Positions 61-35,433 of a stretch of DNA of 64,000 nt are shown piece by piece. Position numbers and translations under genes: made by a program. The DNA is taken from UHGV virus genome UHGV-0236300. The stretch is one strand, 5' to 3'. The notes beneath the pieces are model-generated. The model did not search any database. It was given only the letters and a program-made list of their open reading frames with translations, and was not told where the DNA came from. Within the stretch, counting starts at the first letter, position 1, and each line of letters starts with the position of its first letter. Origin of the DNA: a virus.

Positions 61-3000
61 TGCCAATTGCAATGATTGATAACATCGTTGCTTCTGCAAG
101 ATCTTCGAGCTATGACTGGAACGCATCCAAGGCAGCTCTGGCTGACAGCCTGAACACTGTTACCACCAGAACCCTGGATAAGATTTTCGAAGGAAACAAA
201 TCTTACAGGAGTCAGCAAGATAGACAAAAACTTCTCAGATCTTCTGCTGCACCTTGCTCTGTAGTGTATGGGAAGACACGCACATCTGGGTTGCTTGCGT
301 TTTTGGAGCAGGACAGGGACAGAACCCTTCATTGTGCTATTGTTCTTGCCAATCATCCCTTGGAAGGTATAGAAGATATACTTATCGACGGTAATCCTAT
401 TTCCTCGTATGGGGATTTGGTATCGTGGGAGTTACATAACGACAGGAAAACCTCTGATCCTTTCATGGGAACACACTGCCCTTCGTGGTCACCAGACATG
501 ATAGGTAGAGGTATCAGTTGGCTACGTGCCAGCTTTAAGTTTGACCCTAACAAGTTTCCTTTTGGGTTGCCAAACGTTACACTTGTCAAGGTTGGTAAAA
601 AATGTTATGATCCTCGTATCAGTAAAGAGGTGTATACCAATAACGCTGCCTTGGTGATTCTGGACTATCTAAGAACGTACCTTAAATGTCCTGACGAAAC
701 CATCAACTGGGAGTCCTTCAAGGAAGCTGCCAACATATGCGACGAGGCTGTAAAAAACGCGGACGGAACCAGTGAGCGCCGTTACACCATTAATGGCGAG
801 TTCGACATGGACGAAGCACCAGCAAGTATTATGGCAGAGATGCTGAAGGCTTGTGGTGCAGACCTTAGCTATGTGGCTGGCAAATATGGTCTACTGGTAG
901 GTGCATACTATGGCCCGGCAACAATGACACTGAGTGAGGACTGTGTTTGCGGTGAGGTTAAGATCTATCCTGAAGCCTCCTTCGACAAAAGATCAAACAC
1001 AATAACCGGAAGATTCACCAGTCCAACCAAAGGGTATTCTGAAACAGACTTCCCGTCGGTGTTCGTACCTGAATGGGTAGAGAAGGACGGAGAAAGAAAG
1101 ATAATTGATATAGATTATCGTTTTGTTACCAGTCCTTATCAGGCTCAGCGTGTTTCCGCAATATTCTTAAGACGTGCCAGAGCTGGCAGGATTATTGAAG
1201 TAACCTGCAATATGCGGGGTTTTAAATTTAAGCCTGGGCGTTACGTTACGATGGACCTTCCAAGTATTGGTATAGTGGGCCAAGAAATGAGGGTTCTTGA
1301 ATGGGAGTTCACCAAAAAGGGCGGTGTCAAGGTAAAACTCCGTCAAGATGCTAAAGAGTGGAATGATGCCACAGGGCAACTTCCGGATTCTGGAGATGTG
1401 GATATTCCGATATCCCCGTCCGGCGTAGCTCAACCGCAAAACTTCAGATACTCTGTTCTTCAAGCTGGGGAAGTAACTCATGGTGTTTTGGCTTGGGACA
1501 ACGTTGGAACTTATGCTCAAAATATTGTGCAGGTAAGAAAGAACGGAGAGATTATTTGGACAGCACAAACAGTCGAGCAGTTTGTCCGCGTAGAAGGATT
1601 GACCAAAGGGTCATACACAGCAACCGTGGTTGCAACATCTTATAAAGGTGGTGTATCTCCAGAAGCCTACTGCGAGTTCAACATTCAAGCACCTGAAGCT
1701 CCTGTTTCTGTAGAAGTTAAGCAGGGATACTTTGCTATCACCTTGATTCCGCACAGCAGGGACTTAGCAAGTGTAAGCACCCAGTATGATTTTTGGACAT
1801 CTGGTATGACAAGGTTGCCGGACACAAGTGATGCAACCGTTACTTCAAAAGCCACCCGTATGGGTGTTGGTTCAACTTGGACATCTGAAGGTCTGCAGAA
1901 CGATAAGATTTATTATTGGTATATTCGAACCACAAACGCTTTTGGTAGTTCTCAGTTTGTAGAATGCGCTGCACGCTGCTACACCTCTATTGAAGATTTG
2001 ATGCCTCAGATAGATGCTGAATTTAAAAAGACAGAAACTTATAAAGAGTTGATGAGCACTTTAGATTCCTCTATCGAGGAGGTTGAAAATCGTGTCACAG
2101 AGCTTAACAAGTACATGGACGGAAGGGTAGATGAGGCATTCCAACAACTTGGAGATAGGATAGGTGCGGTAGTTACAGAGACAACTCAGAAGTTTGAGGA
2201 TGTCAATGGAAATATCACAGCTCTGGATAGGAAACTTGTTGCTGCACAGAACAAGTTCACCAACGATCTGAACACTGAAAGTGGAAGACTGGCATCCCTG
2301 ATCGAGACAACCAATAAAGCAACCACTGATCTTCTGAACAAAAAGACAGAGGCTTTAGACGAGAAATTGGTTGCAGCCAAAGGGGAGTTGGTAGAACAAA
2401 TAGATGGTGTGGAGAGCGGATACCTTGCCGGAGATAAAACTCTGGATGGCAAGATCAACACCCAGAGAACGGAACTTGATGCAAGCATCCTGAGCACCAA
2501 CAAAGCGACAGTGGATCTTTTGAACAAGACCTCTGAGACCCTGGATCAAAAGATTAGTCAGACAAACGCGACGGTATCTAAAAACTATACCACCCTTGAT
2601 GGTAAGATAACTACCGCAAAAACTGATCTCAATACCTTGATTGCCAATACCAACAAGGCCACCACCGATTTGTTGAATCAGAAAACCTCTGCACTGTCAG
2701 AGCAGATAACCTCTGCACGTGGGGAGATTTCTACCAACAAACAGGCGATTAAGGATTTAGATGGTAAACTGACCTCCACAAAGACAGCTCTGGATGCTAC
2801 AATTTCCGATACCAACAAAGCAACCGTGGATCTTATTAACGGCACAGCGTCAGCTATTCGTCAAGAACTTGCTGTTGCTAAGCAGGAGATCATTGATGAT
2901 GTTGGGGATGTGTCAGAGCTCAGAGCTGCAGTGGCTACAACATCTAAGGCTGTGACCGACTTAGAGGGCAAAGTAAATGCTCAATGGGGCACAAAAATAC

Positions 3001-8277: not shown

Positions 8278-9318
8278 ATGTCAAAACCTAGTTTTCCATT
8301 AGAGATTTGGGCAGAGGAGGATCAGGTTCTGCCTAACACCCACAGACAGAACAGGCTACGCCCGATTGATGATTTGTGGAGAAAAGGTTGGGATCTTGGT
8401 CAAAAGCCGTCATGTGAAGAACTTAACTATATTTTCAATATGCTCGGGACTTGGGCAAAATATATTGCTGACGAGCAGATCCCTGCCCAAGAGGGCCGTT
8501 ATCTGGTACGTGATAATAACCTGAGCGATCTTTTGAACATTCCTGTTGCCCGTAGAAACCTTGGGATTATCACTAAGGAAGAGGCAGACGCCAGGTATGT
8601 AAAAGTTACAGGCGATACAATGACAGGCCCCTTAGGTTTGCAGCGTATCAACTTTAAAGCTGCCGAGACAGATAAGGCTTGGATAGAGACAACTATTGGT
8701 CCAGATAAGACAACTCTCGACTTTGGGTTAAGTGATAACACTGGGGCGTTTGATGATGGTGGCACATCTACAGTAGATGCGTTTCGTTGGAGATTCCAGC
8801 CAACTCAGCCAGACATTAATCCAGAGTTCACTTTGATGTACCTGAACGCGATCACGGCTAACCGTGCGCTGTTGAAAGTGGTAGGTAATGTTGAAGTTGT
8901 CGATAACATGCGGTGTAACAACCTTACCATCAGCAGCACAGCAACATTCACCAACTGTAATGTGGCTAGTCAGTTGACAGCTGGGTCCGTATATGTTAAT
9001 GGCGGTGCAAGTTGTGACAGTATGGTTGTAAGAAGCCAGCATTGTGTTGTCGGTAACAGAAATGTGGTGCGCTCTGTGAATGGAGTGACGGCTAACGGTA
9101 ACGGAGATGTAACGATCACCATCCCGCAGACAGGGGTACAGGATATCAGAATCGGTGCAAGACTTGTTGATGGTGTTTCTGAATCTCCAGTTCGCAACGG
9201 CTACGTTGTCACAGGTTGGCATTTTGGTGATAAAAAAGAGATGCGTGGTTCAACCTACTGGGCAGGACCTTTACAAAAACTTGTAAATGGTCAATGGATC
9301 ACTGTTAATTATGCGTAG
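8278..9318 (+). CDS. tail fiber protein (paralog A)
   Basis: RBS AGGAG; N-terminus and C-terminus (LVNGQWITVNYA) shared with 10334-11377, central part divergent; followed by Tfa-like chaperone. Confidence 0.65.
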   Translation: MSKPSFPLEIWAEEDQVLPNTHRQNRLRPIDDLWRKGWDLGQKPSCEELNYIFNMLGTWAKYIADEQIPAQEGRYLVRDNNLSDLLNIPVARRNLGIITKEEADARYVKVTGDTMTGPLGLQRINFKAAETDKAWIETTIGPDKTTLDFGLSDNTGAFDDGGTSTVDAFRWRFQPTQPDINPEFTLMYLNAITANRALLKVVGNVEVVDNMRCNNLTISSTATFTNCNVASQLTAGSVYVNGGASCDSMVVRSQHCVVGNRNVVRSVNGVTANGNGDVTITIPQTGVQDIRIGARLVDGVSESPVRNGYVVTGWHFGDKKEMRGSTYWAGPLQKLVNGQWITVNYA

Positions 9319-9332
9319 ATCGGAGGACTAGC

Positions 9333-9917
9333 ATGAAAATACTTCAAGAGTTTAAACTTTACCAACCGGGATCTGGCGAATACTACACCAACAAGGAGAC
9401 CAAGGAGCTGACTCCTCAGGAGGTTGAGGATTACACAGCATACACTGGATATTTTTTACGTAATGATGATGGCGATTGGTATGTGCAATCACGAACACTG
9501 CGACAAGAAAATCCCGGCTGTATCTTCTTACTTGTTGACGAGAAGGGTATTCTTAAGACATCTACAGAAGAACCTGATGCCTTGTGGCCTGCTCCAGGTC
9601 TTCGTGTGGTTATCGCCAAAAAAGAAGAGGTACCAGAAAACATTATGCTCCACCACGACGCTTTGCGTTTAGTTGGTGATGAATTTGTCACAGACAATGA
9701 ATTCTTTGTTCAACAGGCAGAGGGTGTCATAGAGACAGAACTTGCTTGGGCTACTGCTAGAATTGGTGCCTATCAAGACATGATTGACCTTGAATACGAT
9801 CTTACTGATGACCAAAAACGCAACATCAGAGATTTGAAAATGTACAGGGTAAAACTTCTTGAAATAGATACATCTAAAGCCCCTGACATTTTCTTCCCGG
9901 AACGACCTACCCTCTAA
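9333..9917 (+). CDS. tail fiber assembly chaperone (Tfa-like)
   Basis: C-terminal LKMYRVKLLEIDTSKAPDIFFPERP matches the conserved Tfa C-terminal signature; immediately downstream of fiber gene. Confidence 0.6.
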   Translation: MKILQEFKLYQPGSGEYYTNKETKELTPQEVEDYTAYTGYFLRNDDGDWYVQSRTLRQENPGCIFLLVDEKGILKTSTEEPDALWPAPGLRVVIAKKEEVPENIMLHHDALRLVGDEFVTDNEFFVQQAEGVIETELAWATARIGAYQDMIDLEYDLTDDQKRNIRDLKMYRVKLLEIDTSKAPDIFFPERPTL

Positions 9918-9928
9918 GAGGAGGTGTT

Positions 9929-10243
9929 GTGGAGTTGGATTTGGCGGCATTGTACGGTATCTGCATGGGTACCGTTGTCCCGATCTGTGTATGGGCTTTC
10001 AACCAGTGGCACACCAAATGGAAAGGCATTTCCAAGAGGTTGGATGAGCTGGAGAAAGACCTCATTTTAGTGAAAAATAGCATGGTTACAAAAGATAGAC
10101 TTGATTCCATTATCGAGACCCGGTTAAGTAAGCTAGAGGCCGATATTAACGACCTTAAGCAAGATGTCAGGACAGATGTCTCCGGTATCCGAGCTGATGT
10201 ACAAAAGATTTTGCACATGCTTGTAGAGCATAGTAAAAGGTAA
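9929..10243 (+). CDS. hypothetical protein with N-terminal hydrophobic segment and coiled coil
   Basis: GTG start after AGAGGAGG; hydrophobic N-terminus then heptad-like region. Confidence 0.5.
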   Translation: MELDLAALYGICMGTVVPICVWAFNQWHTKWKGISKRLDELEKDLILVKNSMVTKDRLDSIIETRLSKLEADINDLKQDVRTDVSGIRADVQKILHMLVEHSKR

Positions 10244-25114: not shown

Positions 25115-26164
25115 TTATTTAACGTGCTTGAAAATACCAGCCAACTCGGTCATTGTCATGCGAGTGGTCTTCATAAGGTCTGTCATAGCCTTCTCCATGA
25201 TTGGAGATACTACCATGAAGTTACCTTTGGTGAAACCTTTGTTCCAGTCGGTAACTAATAGGGGTTTAAGTCCGGCACCGAGACGTTCACCAGTTAAAGC
25301 ACAACATTTTCGAATGTATGTGCTCTTAAACTGGCTGAATGACAGATCAACTTTCATACCTGCATCGTAGAACGTCTGGCAATAGAAAGTGTAAGCTTTG
25401 GCAATCTCAACATCGTCAGGCAGTGCAGGAACCTCTTCTGTAAGCTCTTCTTCGACCCCTTGAGGCTCTTTTTCCTCTTCGTAAGCCTGTTGCGTCATCT
25501 CTTCAATCTCCTCTACTACAGGCTCGTTTACAATGTCAGAAATGTGCTTGTTGGCTCCACGATTAGCCATGAAGTTTTTAAAATCCTGCATTGGTGACAT
25601 ATCTTCCTCCCATTCTTCGTCAAAGAGTGCTAGTTTATCCTCTTCCGTTCCATATTGCAAGATGAAATCTTCAAAAGTGTAATCACCTTTCAATTTCTCC
25701 ATACGCTCTTCGCTCAGGTGGAGCATCATCTGCTGGACAATTTTTCGATCAGTTTTGTCTTTAATCAAGACTGCGGTCTTTTTATCTACCAGACAGTCCT
25801 TTAGAGAGTTGCATCTCAATCCTACCACACAACAGTTATCAACCGCATAAGGACCTTCATCATCTATCCGCTCTAGAGATGGGTAGAAAGGATTTCCCAG
25901 TCCGTTTTCATCTGTGTGCATGTCGAAAGGTATAAGGGTATAGTCGCATACTCCCTCTCCTAAAAGTTTTTTACCAAATAGGAGATATTCTTCCCATGAC
26001 AGGTTGAACTCTATATCCCGTTTCCGTGCGTTATTCTGTTTGCGTCTGTATTTTTTGAGCAAGCGCTCTAACTCTTCTGGTGTATAATATTTTTCAAGAT
26101 TCATGAGTTGTCTCTTGTTCTCTGTGGGTGGAGAAATCTTACCAAGTGCCTGAGAAGATGTCAA
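25115..26164 (-). CDS. hypothetical acidic protein, possible degenerate HNH/Zn-finger-like N-terminus
   Basis: 349-aa ORF; N-terminal ERIDDEGPY...NCCVVGLRCNSLK loosely HNH-like; Glu-rich C-terminal half. Confidence 0.55.
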   Translation of the reverse strand: MTSSQALGKISPPTENKRQLMNLEKYYTPEELERLLKKYRRKQNNARKRDIEFNLSWEEYLLFGKKLLGEGVCDYTLIPFDMHTDENGLGNPFYPSLERIDDEGPYAVDNCCVVGLRCNSLKDCLVDKKTAVLIKDKTDRKIVQQMMLHLSEERMEKLKGDYTFEDFILQYGTEEDKLALFDEEWEEDMSPMQDFKNFMANRGANKHISDIVNEPVVEEIEEMTQQAYEEEKEPQGVEEELTEEVPALPDDVEIAKAYTFYCQTFYDAGMKVDLSFSQFKSTYIRKCCALTGERLGAGLKPLLVTDWNKGFTKGNFMVVSPIMEKAMTDLMKTTRMTMTELAGIFKHVK

Positions 26165-30329: not shown

Positions 30330-30358
30330 CACCCCGCTTCGGCGGGGATTTTCTATTT
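30330..30358 (+). terminator. rho-independent terminator
   Basis: CCCCGC-TTCG-GCGGGG hairpin (same 16-mer as at 3909-3924) followed by T-run. Confidence 0.75.
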
Positions 30359-30367
30359 GGAGCTATT

Positions 30368-30868
30368 GTGAAAATTAAAATCTTTGCTATTATTTTGAGC
30401 GCATTTTTATCGCTGCCTGTTGTTGCAGCACCAAAACAAAAAGTATATCACACTTGCAAGCCGTCGGATACTAAGGAAAACATTCTAGCATGCAATATCT
30501 ACAGGGAGGCTAGAGGGGATGGCACGATGGGGATGCTGGCATCCGGATTTGCCACACTAAACAGGAAATCTCACCCCAAATACCCAGACACTATAAGAAA
30601 GATTGTCTACCAACCTAACCAGTTTTCGTGGACAAACCACGGCAAAACTTTTAAGGTGACAGAAAAAGATTCATGGGATCACGCTAAAAGTCTTGCAAAG
30701 ATGCTTCTAAAGGTCTATAATAACAACCATGTTGCATACATGGCTATGGATATAACAGGTGGAGCAACACACTACCATACAACAAAAGTACGACCGAAAT
30801 GGGCAAAAAAGATGCAGAGGACAGCTCAATTCGGGAGTCATATCTACTACAAGGAGCGCAATAAATGA
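30368..30868 (+). CDS. secreted cell wall hydrolase, SleB-like
   Basis: GTG start; N-terminal signal peptide MKIKIFAIILSAFLSLPVVAAP; motif YREARGDG...ATLNRKSHPKYPDTIRKIVYQPNQFSW. Confidence 0.7.
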   Translation: MKIKIFAIILSAFLSLPVVAAPKQKVYHTCKPSDTKENILACNIYREARGDGTMGMLASGFATLNRKSHPKYPDTIRKIVYQPNQFSWTNHGKTFKVTEKDSWDHAKSLAKMLLKVYNNNHVAYMAMDITGGATHYHTTKVRPKWAKKMQRTAQFGSHIYYKERNK

Positions 30869-32847
30869 TTGTAAACAGCAATGAAACTAAAGCGGTGCTA
30901 ACTGGGAATATGGAGGTAACCAGGGGATCAATTTCTCTGAACAAAGAGACTTTTGGGCTAATCATCAAAGGGATTTATGAAGATAAGGTACTGGCAAGCT
31001 GCCGTGAACCGATCTTCAATGCTGTGGACTCCCATGTTGAGTCTGGACGGGGTGATGTTCCGATCATCATTCACTCTCCTACAGACCTTGAACCATACTT
31101 CTTTGTGCAGGACGTTGGATTAGGCATGTCAGAAGAGATGGTCCGTAACACTTTCATGAACCTCGGTGAGTCGACCAAGCGCAACAGCAACGCTCTGGTA
31201 GGCAATAAAGGTGTTGGTTCAAAGGCCCCGTTCAGCATGGTGGACACTTTCGATGTAATCAGTGTGCACAACGGTGTGGAAAGCACATACCTATTGTTCT
31301 TGGACCAGGGTATCCCAAATGTCACCAAGATCCGTGAGCGGAAGACTGAAGAGCACAACGGGGTAAAAGTTCAGTTTCATGTTAAGAAAGAGCATGTTCT
31401 GAAATATCGCACCGCTATTGCATCATGCCTGCGCTATGCAAAATTTCCGTTCACTGTCACCGACCCGATGACGAGCAAGATGCTGGAGGGAGACAAAGTA
31501 GAGGCGCAGTATTATTATGAAAAAGATGGTTGGAAGATGACCATCCTGAAGGGTTATACCAGCTCTGACGAGAGTCGTGTGGTAATGGGTCACCAACCTT
31601 ACCGTTCTAAGTTCCTGGAGACACTAATAGATTATCCTGCAATTTGTGTAGAGATCCCTATCGGAGATTGCAATATTAACCCAGGGCGTGAATGGACCAT
31701 AGAAGGTCACGACGATGGTGGATTCCAAGAGCGTTTGGAAGCTTTTGTCAAAGAAGGCATTCGCCTTCGTGGAGCAGAAGTTGTTGCAGAACTGGAGACA
31801 GCAAAAACATCCTCAGAAGCACGCGAGATGATGAAGAACAGTGGAGTGTTCGGGCACATCTTCGGTAAGAATTTTATGTATGACCGCTGGGAAGAAACAG
31901 GGCTAGGAAATTTGGGGGACTGCGAGATCTTCGCTGGCGGCTTAAATAAAGGCCGCATAGGTTACGCCTGCTACGGAAAGGTAGAATTCTTACGGGGAGT
32001 TTATTTAGTATTTAACGACGGAGACGGCAAATATAACCGGAATAAGTGTAACTACTTAAGCGAGATTACCGGACGCAACGTTTTCTATTGCCGTAACACG
32101 GATCTGGTGAAAGAGTTTAAAGAGGCGGCACACCATCCGTTTTTTGCAGATACGGTCAAATTGTTATCGGAGCTTCCACGCCGACCTACGAAGAAAGGTG
32201 AAACCAAAACCCGTTACGAACCAGGCTATTGGGTTAAAAAACTTGAGAAGGATGGTTACTTCCGGCGTGAGCGTATTACTAAGGCAGAGTTCAGGAAGAT
32301 TAAGCACTGCATACCGTATGAGGGGGATATCCAACGCGGAAGTTGTTGGCTAGGGCAGATGAGCAACATCTACCAGCAAGATTATGACCGTGTGCGTGCG
32401 GCACTCCAGATTCCTGAAGGGGAAGATCTGTACCTGGTGTCGGAATCTCGTCTGCTTTGGACTGATCCTGATTGCCAATATGTTACAGAGAAGAATGTGG
32501 AACATTTGTTGAAAGAGGATGCTTGGAAATTCTTACTAACTCGCGCAGCAAATGAAACTTCATATGACAGCCTGTACAGACAGTTAGGTAAAATTATCCC
32601 CATGCAGGATTTTGGAAGTTATCGGCCACATTTCCACAAGTGGGAAGGTAGCACCACGTGGAAGTACGGTGAGCTAAATCATCGTGCCAAAATCTTAATC
32701 GCCAACCGGGTTAAGTGCGGGAAGGCCTATATTGCAAGATTGGAAAAGAAATATCCACTTTTGAAGCATGTAGGCTTGAAATATTGGGATACTCCTGCTA
32801 TGATTGAATACCGTGAACTGATTGATACAAAGAATAACATCAAATAA
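30865..32847 (+). CDS. GHKL (Bergerat-fold) ATPase-domain protein, Hsp90/HtpG-like N-terminal domain
   Basis: N-box IFNAVDS, G1 box QDVGLGM, G2 box GNKGVGSKAPF with NLGESTKRN between, Hsp90-like; ATGA overlap with upstream gene. Confidence 0.7.
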   Translation: MIVNSNETKAVLTGNMEVTRGSISLNKETFGLIIKGIYEDKVLASCREPIFNAVDSHVESGRGDVPIIIHSPTDLEPYFFVQDVGLGMSEEMVRNTFMNLGESTKRNSNALVGNKGVGSKAPFSMVDTFDVISVHNGVESTYLLFLDQGIPNVTKIRERKTEEHNGVKVQFHVKKEHVLKYRTAIASCLRYAKFPFTVTDPMTSKMLEGDKVEAQYYYEKDGWKMTILKGYTSSDESRVVMGHQPYRSKFLETLIDYPAICVEIPIGDCNINPGREWTIEGHDDGGFQERLEAFVKEGIRLRGAEVVAELETAKTSSEAREMMKNSGVFGHIFGKNFMYDRWEETGLGNLGDCEIFAGGLNKGRIGYACYGKVEFLRGVYLVFNDGDGKYNRNKCNYLSEITGRNVFYCRNTDLVKEFKEAAHHPFFADTVKLLSELPRRPTKKGETKTRYEPGYWVKKLEKDGYFRRERITKAEFRKIKHCIPYEGDIQRGSCWLGQMSNIYQQDYDRVRAALQIPEGEDLYLVSESRLLWTDPDCQYVTEKNVEHLLKEDAWKFLLTRAANETSYDSLYRQLGKIIPMQDFGSYRPHFHKWEGSTTWKYGELNHRAKILIANRVKCGKAYIARLEKKYPLLKHVGLKYWDTPAMIEYRELIDTKNNIK

Positions 32848-32857
32848 GGAGACCAAG

Positions 32858-34063
32858 ATGATTTTCATCTACGAACATTTCAAAACTCGTAAAGAAGCAC
32901 GTGACCGCCGTGCAGAGCTTGAGAAGAAGGGTTTCACATGCGCTATTGAGAAAGGTAACACAACCTGGACACTGGCAGTAGGTGCCCCAGAGTTGTTCGA
33001 TCCTGACCGTGACAGCGTCTGCTACACCCGTGAGGATTTTGAAACCCGTGAAGAGGCCCGTTTATTTCGATATGGGCTGGAAGATAACGGTAAGTACGCC
33101 ATGATCTTAGACTTAGGCGAAGGTTCCGTTAAACGTTGGGGCGTGGTATATCCGCTGTGTGTTGTTCACGGTGTAGGGTTCACTGGGGTAGCAATCAAGT
33201 CAGAAGAACCTTTAGTAGAAGTCAAAGACCCGGTGCTGGAGGTGGTGAGCAGTGTGTCTCAGCAACAGACCCGAAGCATCGAGCCTTTGGTGGTTATTTG
33301 CGGGGAACTCCTCCAGATCACCTGCAACGAAGGTATTTTTGAAATTCGCCGCAGTGAAAGTGAGGAAGTTTACCAGAAAGTCTTCGACCATATCTCTGTT
33401 CAGGAATATGACGAGGCAATTGGTGAAATCCTTGTCTGGCTGGAACGCAAGAATGAGTTCACCACACTTGCAGACAACCTGATCATGAAAGATGGTAAGC
33501 TCTACTACTACGGTGTAGAGATGCGATCCACCATTGCAAAGAAAATTGAGAAAGATTATGCAGACGGAACACTGGATGACCGCTATGTGAAATTCCTCGT
33601 TCGCCTGCTACGCAATCCTTCTGCAAAATCTGTAAACATGCTCTACGATTTTATGCAGGCAAACGACATTCAGATTGCAGAAGATGGTCGAATCATTTGC
33701 TACAAAGGGGTTCAGTTTAACGGCGACAAGTGGGTGGATTGGCACAGTGGTAAAGTCCCACAATACCAGGGGGCTTTTGTATCCATGCCTCGTAACTTTG
33801 TAGAGGATGATCCGGAAGCTGCATGCTCTTATGGCCTGCACTGTGCCAGCAAAGAGTATGCAAAGAGCTACGGAACTGTGATGACGGTTATGGTTGACCC
33901 TGCTGATGTAGTTAGTGTACCTTACCGACACAACAGCGCCAAGTGCCGTGCATGCCGCTACGAAATCGTAGTAGCTCCAGAATCGCGCAAAGATGGCGAC
34001 CCAATTGAGTACGTGGTTGACCGCGACGGTAATACTATCGACATTATCTACGAGGAGGCGTAA
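32858..34063 (+). CDS. hypothetical protein
   Basis: ATG preceded by AAGGAG (track start 32822 overlaps upstream gene without RBS); Cys cluster CRACRYE near C-terminus. Confidence 0.6.
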   Translation: MIFIYEHFKTRKEARDRRAELEKKGFTCAIEKGNTTWTLAVGAPELFDPDRDSVCYTREDFETREEARLFRYGLEDNGKYAMILDLGEGSVKRWGVVYPLCVVHGVGFTGVAIKSEEPLVEVKDPVLEVVSSVSQQQTRSIEPLVVICGELLQITCNEGIFEIRRSESEEVYQKVFDHISVQEYDEAIGEILVWLERKNEFTTLADNLIMKDGKLYYYGVEMRSTIAKKIEKDYADGTLDDRYVKFLVRLLRNPSAKSVNMLYDFMQANDIQIAEDGRIICYKGVQFNGDKWVDWHSGKVPQYQGAFVSMPRNFVEDDPEAACSYGLHCASKEYAKSYGTVMTVMVDPADVVSVPYRHNSAKCRACRYEIVVAPESRKDGDPIEYVVDRDGNTIDIIYEEA

Positions 34064-35433
34064 TGGAAAAAGGGCAGTACGATGTAGGCACAGATGCTGC
34101 CCTTGTTGCAATCATGAGCGGTGAGAATGTCTTCGTAAGTGGACCTGGTGGAACCGGGAAGACATATCTTATCAACATGATCCAGTCCATGTATGGAGAC
34201 TCTTGCATAACGGTTGCCCCGACAGGGGTAGCCGCTTTAAACGTTAATGGAGCAACAGCGCACCGAACTTTCGATCTTGCCGCAGGTGTGAGCATGGAGT
34301 CAGACTGGACAGCAATAAGGGCAAAAACAGCAAAGCCTCTGAAAAGCAAGGCATTTACCATCCTGATTATCGATGAAATCTCTATGATCCGTGCTGACAA
34401 GTTCATAGAGATGGATAGAAAACTCCGCTTTCTTCGGAAAAATGACAAACCTTTCGGAGGCATTCAGGTGTTATTGTTTGGAGATTTCTACCAAGCACCT
34501 CCAGTTGTCTCTTCTATGGAGAAAGAAGCCTACTTCAACTTCTACCACACAGATCTGTGTTGCTATACAGAATCTTGGGAGGATCTTAATCTTCACAACA
34601 TAGCCTTGGTAGACCAGTTCCGTCAGGAATCTGTTCGCTTCGCCACAATGTTGAACTGTGTTCGTGAAGGTCGTCGCATAAAAGAGGTTGTAGCAGAGCT
34701 TAACACTCGTTGCTATCATGGTGGTGTCCCAACAGATGCCTTGACCATCTGTGCCACCAATAAGCAAGCAGAGGAGGTGAACAGACGTTTCTATGATGCC
34801 ATCAAGGCCCCAGAGAAGACCTACATTGGTAAAATGAAAGGTAAGTTCCCTTCCACACTACCTGTGGAGCAGGAAATGAGGCTGAAGATAGGGATGAAGG
34901 TTATGATAACCTCAAACGATGTTGACCCTACTCACAAAGTTCCGTATTATGTTAACGGGACACGTGCCACAGTGGTAAAATTCAAGACCAAATCCGTAGT
35001 AGTTGAGCTAGAAGACGGAACACAGGTTGAAATTGAGCCGAGATTGTGGGAGAATAACGAGTACAAACCTTCCCAGAGGTACAATATTGCCGAAAGGAAG
35101 ATGGAGAAGTTCATAGAGAGGGTTGTGATCGGGTCTTATGAGCAACTTCCTTTGAAATCTGGGTACGCAGTAACATCGCATAAAAGTCAAGGACTTACGT
35201 TAGATTGTTACAACCTAGACCTCGGAAAGAACGGAGCTTTCTCTCCCGGAATGACGTATGTTGCCTTGAGTCGGGTTAAGACGATACAAGGAATAAACTT
35301 GTTGCGTCCATTAAGAGAGGTGGATATTATTGTTGACCCGAGAGTCGTAGAGTTTTATAATACAACTTTCCCTGGCTTAGACGAGAAAGTCAGGAAAGAT
35401 TTTGAAACTAGAGCAGAAAAGGGGGACGTATGA
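34063..35433 (+). CDS. SF1 DNA helicase, RecD/Pif1/Dda-like
   Basis: Walker A GPGGTGKT, Walker B LIIDEISM, C-terminal TSHKSQGLT...YVALSRVK. Confidence 0.85.
   Translation: MEKGQYDVGTDAALVAIMSGENVFVSGPGGTGKTYLINMIQSMYGDSCITVAPTGVAALNVNGATAHRTFDLAAGVSMESDWTAIRAKTAKPLKSKAFTILIIDEISMIRADKFIEMDRKLRFLRKNDKPFGGIQVLLFGDFYQAPPVVSSMEKEAYFNFYHTDLCCYTESWEDLNLHNIALVDQFRQESVRFATMLNCVREGRRIKEVVAELNTRCYHGGVPTDALTICATNKQAEEVNRRFYDAIKAPEKTYIGKMKGKFPSTLPVEQEMRLKIGMKVMITSNDVDPTHKVPYYVNGTRATVVKFKTKSVVVELEDGTQVEIEPRLWENNEYKPSQRYNIAERKMEKFIERVVIGSYEQLPLKSGYAVTSHKSQGLTLDCYNLDLGKNGAFSPGMTYVALSRVKTIQGINLLRPLREVDIIVDPRVVEFYNTTFPGLDEKVRKDFETRAEKGDV

Follow-up and report, generated by a model that had tools for sequence, protein, structure and literature searches.

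The stretch analysed here, a 64,000-nucleotide window of the virus genome UHGV-0236300, carries at positions 30,865 to 34,063 two adjacent plus-strand genes that are, with very little doubt, rIIA and rIIB, the textbook pair of Benzer's rII locus, functionally tested in a 96.8%-identical orthologue from the phage EdH4. The original prediction had described an Hsp90/HtpG-like GHKL ATPase of 660 amino acids (aa) followed by an unknown protein of 401 aa. Both open reading frames (ORFs) were found as described, and their features are given below.

30865..32847, plus strand: rIIA, 660 aa (phrog_612, BLASTP against phage T4, annotation in phage ECP26, identity to EdH4)
30865..31449, plus strand: Bergerat-fold (GHKL) ATP-binding domain, rIIA residues 1-195 (Pfam HATPase_c_3, invariant residues, TRAP1/Hsp90 alignment)
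31003-31029, plus strand: N box, E48/N52/D55 (motif ExxxNxxD)
31111-31125, plus strand: G1 box, D83xGxG (motif)
31159-31185, plus strand: lid, NLGESTKRN (motif)
31201-31218, plus strand: G2 box, G113xxGxG (motif)
31720..32847, plus strand: lineage-variable C-terminal region, rIIA residues 286-660 (no T4 alignment, no Pfam match)
32858..34063, plus strand: rIIB, 401 aa (phrog_609, BLASTP against T4, annotation in ECP26, Foldseek)
32858..33160, plus strand: two tandem SPOR-like beta-alpha-beta-beta units, rIIB residues 1-101 (structure model, internal repeat)
33161..33349, plus strand: poorly conserved linker and short beta unit, rIIB residues 102-164 (predicted local distance difference test scores, pLDDT; gappy, variable alignment columns)
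33350..33982, plus strand: conserved rIIB core domain, residues 165-375 (family-wide signature)

The 660-aa protein was matched by phrog_612 ('RIIA lysis inhibitor') at E 2.1e-123, with residues 1-658 of 660 placed on profile positions 1-724 of 725, and its N-terminus was also matched by six further PHROG families labelled RIIA or RIIB. BLASTP against T4 rIIA (AF158101) gave 28% identity (E 4e-21) across 198 N-terminal aligned positions only. The 401-aa protein was matched by phrog_609 ('RIIB lysis inhibitor') at E 3.6e-61 and by four other RIIB families, and was 37% identical to T4 rIIB (AF158101) across 204 residues (E 7e-39). When its predicted structure was compared with viral models using Foldseek, rIIB proteins from more than 20 phage groups were returned, including T4-like, N4-like, PhiW-14, Caulobacter and Microcystis phages. 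Taken together, the PHROG, T4 and Foldseek matches identify the 401-aa protein, originally entered as unknown, as rIIB and the Hsp90-like ATPase as rIIA. Gene order and orientation are of the T4 type, with rIIB directly downstream of rIIA on the same strand, and the invariant signature residues of the rIIB core are likewise shared with T4.

At the nucleotide level, the region was 99.6-99.9% identical to Escherichia phages vB_EcoM-ECP26 (ECP26), B9-1 and S127 BCL3 and shared 90-97% identity with over 100 further rV5-like phages (Vequintavirus, Vequintavirinae); by nucleotide identity, the phage is classed as a Vequintavirus (an rV5-like E. coli myophage). In the ECP26 record (99.9% nucleotide identity) the pair is annotated as 'rIIA protector' and 'rIIB protector', flanked by a 'cell wall hydrolase' and a RecD-like helicase, and the pair at this locus is already known, being annotated in dozens of near-identical Vequintavirus genomes. 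The rV5 reference genome and many of its relatives were opened at rIIA by convention (PMC4591320), and genome comparison showed rV5-like records beginning at rIIA position 1. EdH4 (Vequintavirus murica) was 91.6% identical in nucleotides and 96.8% in amino acids across rIIA and rIIB; each of its two proteins is 96.8% identical to the one here and of equal length, and the hydrolase and helicase flanks are the same. From its EdH4 orthologue, rIIA differs by 21 substitutions and rIIB by 13, all of which spare the GHKL motifs and the signature residues of rIIB; GenBank still lists both EdH4 rII genes as 'hypothetical protein'. A set of sixteen 'Campylobacter phage' records (MG0656xx; host given as C. 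jejuni; 135-143 kb) were about 92% identical to the rII region, which suggests that they are mislabelled or contaminating E. coli phages.

Homologues of the N-terminal 285 aa of rIIA were found by tblastn in 2,644 of 50,697 phage records, whose organism names began with more than 80 distinct first words, mostly host genera; the idea, raised in the original prediction for phage replication modules, that such GHKL ATPases are uncommon in phages does not fit this count. For rIIB, the core (residues 165-375) was searched with phmmer against 1.84 billion representative proteins, returning 7,596 clusters at E ≤ 1e-3 and 6,108 at E ≤ 1e-10. All rIIB homologues listed carried the precomputed label PF26926, which seems to denote a Pfam family for the rIIB core that appears to be absent from the Pfam-A copy scanned.

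Within rIIA, the motifs IFNAVDS (residue 50), QDVGLGM (82), NLGESTKRN (99) and GNKGVGSKAPF (113) were read, so that the three Bergerat boxes and the lid named in the original prediction are all present. The Pfam model HATPase_c_3 scored 34.9 bits (E 1.8e-8) against a cut-off of 25 bits. In an alignment of 23 homologues reaching down to 18% identity, R47, E48, N52, D55, D83, G85, G87, S103, T104, K105, G113, G116, G118 and G166 were invariant, as were Y246, R275 and E276 in the next domain; these residues show a predicted ATP site that is intact, and with the Pfam score they set the motifs apart from chance occurrences. A profile of the rIIA family was then compared with all PDB sequences, and among the 60 best matches listed only Hsp90-family chains were found (those listed include TRAP1, Hsp90, GRP94 and HtpG, E 1.6e-8 to 8.5e-5). 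With the single rIIA sequence, the best PDB chain was only TRAP1 at E 0.1, Hsp90 being reached with the family profile. Some HtpG alignments extended to profile position 321, whereas isolated Hsp90 N-domains aligned across about 160 residues only, which argues that rIIA carries a two-domain module made up of an ATP-binding and a transducer/middle domain. The alignments thus show a predicted architecture typical of the GyrB-Hsp90-MutL-MORC class.

The motif order and the lid are those of the Hsp90 family (TRAP1, HtpG, GRP94 and Hsp82; REplfNAvDA, DfGlGM, tlGeSTK, iGakGiGSKapF). However, identity to this family is 15% only, no Hsp90 C-terminal dimerisation domain was matched, and Hsp90 proteins have co-chaperone partners, whereas rIIA is a phage accessory gene partnered with rIIB. 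There was no Pfam HSP90 match to rIIA at E ≤ 0.1, the NCBIfam HSP90 model reached 17.9 bits against a cut-off of 455, and the NCBIfam matches as a whole were sub-threshold only (sacsin, HSP90, restriction-enzyme GHKL). The Hsp90/HtpG-like fold and likeness that had been proposed therefore stand (best profile E 1.6e-8), but the protein does not belong among the unclassified: it is rIIA, Hsp90-like by its predicted fold but outside the Hsp90 family itself.

Searches of rIIA with Pfam and NCBIfam detected no Toprim, GyrB C-terminal, MutL C-terminal, HisKA or Hsp90 C-terminal domain, in agreement with the earlier observation, borne out by Pfam, that the 660-aa protein lacks a partner domain of the topoisomerase, MutL or kinase type. 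The C-terminal 375 aa matched nothing in Pfam at E ≤ 0.01, and the sole match up to E 1 was DUF7003 (E 0.047), below its cut-off; a topoisomerase subunit, which had been named as the finding that would overturn the original prediction, was thus not seen in this region. The AlphaFold2 model of the C-terminal region is mixed alpha/beta and helical, with pLDDT mostly 80-95. The C-terminal part also sets the protein apart from its T4 counterpart, with which its last ~450 residues do not align.

The predicted structure of rIIB has a mean pLDDT of 72, rising to 80-95 in the core. Its two N-terminal units span residues 3-42 and 54-101, and their internal repeat scored 44 against a shuffle mean of 19.4 (standard deviation 3.9), a score equalled in none of 500 shuffles. 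The SPOR profile was covered by half and scored below the cut-off on the full protein. Residues ~100-142 form a linker predicted to be disordered (pLDDT 23-28), followed by the short beta unit at 144-164. No helix-turn-helix (HTH) was matched by Pfam in the rIIB studied here, whereas T4 rIIB residues 7-50 match HTH_7 and HTH_28 (E ~6e-5). The two proteins therefore differ in having an HTH in T4 and a SPOR-like repeat pair here, and the rIIB core appears, from such domain predictions, to be paired with different N-terminal modules across phage groups.

The core signature consists of N253-P-S, G277, K283, D294, R312, C323-S-x-G-x-H328, Y334, P348, D350 and K362-x-R364-x-C366-x-Y368. The residues of NPS, K283, D294, R312, CSxGxH and KxRxCxY are all present and are 87-100% conserved across 148 representatives and T4. 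A Cys cluster had been proposed for the 401-aa protein, and 10 Cys are indeed found; of these, C323 and C366 alone are retained in the wider family, as is H328. Sequence comparison of rIIB with PDB chains returned nothing significant, and the core alone was matched by no Pfam model. Neither a signal peptide nor a conserved transmembrane segment was found in rIIB, the best 19-residue hydrophobic window (95-113) falling in a non-conserved stretch.

In T4, rIIA and rIIB counteract the lambda RexAB abortive infection system, and the module is widespread in large phages (PMC8594841). RIIA or RIIB was knocked down by CRISPRi-ART in T4, MM02, EdH4, SUSP1 and N4 by Adler et al. 2025 (PMC11879866); the knock-downs left infection of Rex-free E. 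coli unaffected and lowered the efficiency of plating on cells expressing lambda RexAB (PMC11879866). Both genes were also non-essential in T4 transposon libraries, in agreement with the knock-down data (10.1101/2025.11.20.689424). The EdH4 knock-downs are the strongest functional evidence for the locus, and the counter-defence role hinted at in the original prediction proved correct in so far as knock-down of these orthologues shows an anti-RexAB role (PMC11879866). Like their T4 counterparts, which protect from prophage-induced early lysis (anti-RexAB) and are homologous in the rIIA GHKL domain and the rIIB core, the genes studied here would, by analogy, very probably serve as an anti-Rex-type counter-defence that is dispensable on naive hosts. 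The pair is probably needed also against systems related to RexAB. In a different setting, RIIB of T6 triggers a CARD/gasdermin defence system, and its expression on its own is toxic (PMC10312443).

Several observations bear on whether the two proteins act together. The genes were adjacent in all relatives examined. A 1,049-aa protein of RB43, annotated 'RIIA-RIIB membrane-associated' (UniProt Q56C47), includes the fold of the rIIB core (Foldseek E 3.7e-16, BFVD) and looks like a full-length natural rIIA-rIIB fusion, a single polypeptide where the present phage has two genes 10 nucleotides apart. Of the 1,055 positions of phrog_609, the N-terminal end was matched by rIIA and the C-terminal end by rIIB, which is probably explained by an RB43-type fusion. 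The same Rex phenotype follows from knock-down of either gene (PMC11879866). Adjacency, the RB43 fusion, the two-ended phrog_609 match and the shared phenotype argue for a joint function, probably in a complex, and from them we infer a physical interaction between rIIA and rIIB.

Other joined forms of rIIB were seen. A metagenomic protein of 330 aa (P0072; 7 member sequences, on a 38.7-kb contig) has rIIA residues 1-66 (68% identical) joined in frame to roughly the last 260 residues of rIIB; this natural deletion is similar to the r1589 rIIA-rIIB fusion of Benzer. A second, of 498 aa (P0005; 3.3-kb ENA contig), joins TPR repeats to rIIB residues 182-401 at 99.5% identity and most likely reflects an assembly chimera, not a genuine fusion. 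When ten long rIIB-core proteins were scanned with Pfam, no GHKL fusion was found and one had a PP-binding domain.

An ATP-driven rIIA-rIIB clamp complex is offered tentatively as the mechanism, at somewhat less than even chances. In this model, rIIA would dimerise on binding ATP, as Hsp90, MutL, MORC and GyrB do, and would act in complex with rIIB early in infection, where the complex would stop an infection-derived signal from activating RexA/RexB, or would stop the membrane depolarisation that these cause. Two variants may be considered. In the first, the complex would mask or remodel the DNA-protein intermediates of replication or recombination that are believed to switch on RexA; the DNA-clamp relatives of rIIA and the HTH of T4 rIIB would fit this variant, as would RexA itself, which is described as a DNA-binding protein (10.1101/2023.08.31.555690). 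In the second, the complex would act at the inner membrane. Older work recovered the rII proteins of T4 with the membrane fraction; here, a conserved transmembrane segment is absent.

A number of points weigh against the counter-defence role and the mechanism proposed for it. The rII module has itself been called 'poorly understood' (PMC8594841; PMC11879866), and the Rex phenotype comes from the 96.8%-identical EdH4 orthologues rather than from this exact phage. In the literature searched, ATPase activity, dimerisation and an rIIA-rIIB complex were not found to have been biochemically demonstrated for any rII protein. The N-terminus of rIIB here is without the T4 HTH, so that the DNA-binding argument made for T4 rIIB does not transfer directly. 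Finally, the hydrolase and helicase genes that flank the pair do not by themselves indicate defence evasion.

For the molecular mechanism of rIIA and rIIB, discovered some 70 years ago, three starting points emerge, which bear on the rII family in general more than on the present locus: the complete Hsp90-like two-domain GHKL module predicted in rIIA, the invariant Cys/His/Arg/Lys signature of the rIIB core, which is without a solved analogue, and the N-terminal module of rIIB, which appears to vary between phage groups. Iyer et al. treat rIIB as a transcription factor. The set Cys323-x4-His328...Lys362-x-Arg364-x-Cys366, with R312, D294 and D350, is nearly invariant in thousands of phage lineages, and no solved structure offers an analogue of it. 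It is conceivable, if unlikely, that the rIIB core is an enzyme or a metal-dependent sensor instead of a passive 'protector' or a transcription factor; rIIA would then be an Hsp90-type ATP-driven clamp that regulates or loads this core, and the swappable N-terminal module would direct the complex to cellular targets that differ from one phage group to another. A distant rIIB-core protein of 445 aa (P0239; core at 30-231) ends in a PP-binding domain (phosphopantetheine attachment, acyl-carrier-like; Pfam E 2.6e-13), which is an unexpected partner domain for the rIIB family.

The genes and features that border the pair are the following.

30332..30347, plus strand: terminator-like GC hairpin, CCCCGCTTCGGCGGGG followed by a T-run (EdH4 has a terminator annotated at the same place)
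30368..30868, plus strand: SleB/CwlJ-type cell-wall hydrolase, 166 aa (Pfam Hydrolase_2, E 2e-19; PHROG endolysin family, E 1.7e-27)
34063..35433, plus strand: Pif1/Dda-like superfamily 1 (SF1) helicase, 456 aa (Pfam PIF1, E 1.8e-33; PHROG Dda-like helicase, E 7e-111)

The hydrolase product has a signal-peptide-like N-terminus, so a secreted hydrolase does lie upstream of rIIA, as had been proposed. Its gene is coupled to rIIA by the ATGA overlap that was described earlier and was confirmed by reading the sequence at 30865-30868 (ATG 30865-30867, TGA 30866-30868, with AAGGAG 8 nucleotides upstream). The SF1 helicase follows rIIB directly, again as stated, its start overlapping the rIIB stop by 1 nucleotide (TAATG at 34061-34065). 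These neighbours differ from those in T4, where topoisomerase gene 60 and denB adjoin the pair. In the wider neighbourhood, genes for a MoxR-like ATPase, the Pif1/Dda helicase, a methyltransferase and a primase-helicase flank the rII pair.

From this setting a lysis-timing module could be read, in which rIIA and rIIB would set the time of lysis together with the coupled SleB-type hydrolase, with the SPOR-like repeats of rIIB as the part that recognises peptidoglycan. The ATGA coupling to a Hydrolase_2 gene that is labelled endolysin in several records, the SPOR-like N-terminus itself and the PHROG category of the families ('lysis', with the label 'lysis inhibitor') all favour such a module. 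The label is historical, however, 'r' standing for the rapid-lysis plaque type, and the SPOR match is to half a profile and below the cut-off on the full protein. In T4, lysis inhibition proper is governed by rI, rIII and the holin and is not known to depend on rII. As rIIB has no signal peptide or other export signal and no conserved transmembrane segment, it should be unable to reach the peptidoglycan, and EdH4 knock-downs plate normally where Rex is lacking (PMC11879866). A role in lysis timing is accordingly considered quite improbable.

The same surroundings could be taken to point to replication, with rIIA and rIIB acting as an Hsp90-type chaperone or DNA clamp that folds or assembles the replisome or handles replicating DNA. 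The position between the MoxR-like ATPase, Pif1/Dda helicase, methyltransferase and primase-helicase genes, the Hsp90/MutL/MORC-like fold and the topoisomerase genes that adjoin rIIA in T4 speak for this, and T4 rII mutations suppress DNA ligase mutants. Nevertheless, no Hsp90 C-terminal, Toprim or nuclease domain was found in rIIA, both genes are non-essential in the T4 transposon libraries (10.1101/2025.11.20.689424), and knock-down of RIIA or RIIB in five phages, EdH4 among them, does not inhibit infection when Rex is lacking (PMC11879866). The placement of the ATPase in a replication module by the original prediction is thus not matched by a replication function, since the EdH4 knock-downs were without effect when RexAB was absent (PMC11879866), and this explanation is regarded as highly improbable.

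That rIIA supplies the ATPase subunit for a split topoisomerase, or for a MutL-like repair enzyme, whose partner is encoded close by has a next to negligible chance, since no Toprim, DNA_gyraseB, Topo VI-B transducer or MutL_C domain was found (down to E ≤ 0.1 with the full protein and E ≤ 1 with the C-terminal 375 aa), the rIIA profile picks the Hsp90 family exclusively among the PDB matches listed, and the adjacent gene is rIIB and not a GyrA or Top6A-type subunit.

A host-type defence protein is likewise not supported, there being no meaningful match of either protein to the PADLOC defence-protein models (rIIA marginal only, E 0.005-0.008, 12.7 bits; rIIB none).

As for the gene junctions within the block of hydrolase, rIIA, rIIB and helicase genes, the hairpin at 30332-30347 is its upstream boundary, having a perfect 6-bp GC stem and a GNRA-like loop and being readable as a terminator on both strands. 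The gap between the rIIA stop and the rIIB start, read from the sequence, is 10 nucleotides. The rIIB ATG at 32858 is preceded by AAGGAG 6 nucleotides upstream and is the same start as in GenBank relatives; an alternative start, TTG at 32822, would give a protein of 413 aa. Between 20001 and 26000, GC skew and AT skew go negative and an ORF (25115-26164) lies on the minus strand, which together place the rII block just downstream of a divergent junction near 26.2 kb. The helicase gene (34063-35433) is one intact ORF here, and in the near-identical ECP26 record (8764-10132) it is given as two coding sequences ('RecD-like helicase' and 'helicase'); this split may reflect a frameshift or a sequencing error in the ECP26 record, or the two phages may truly differ.

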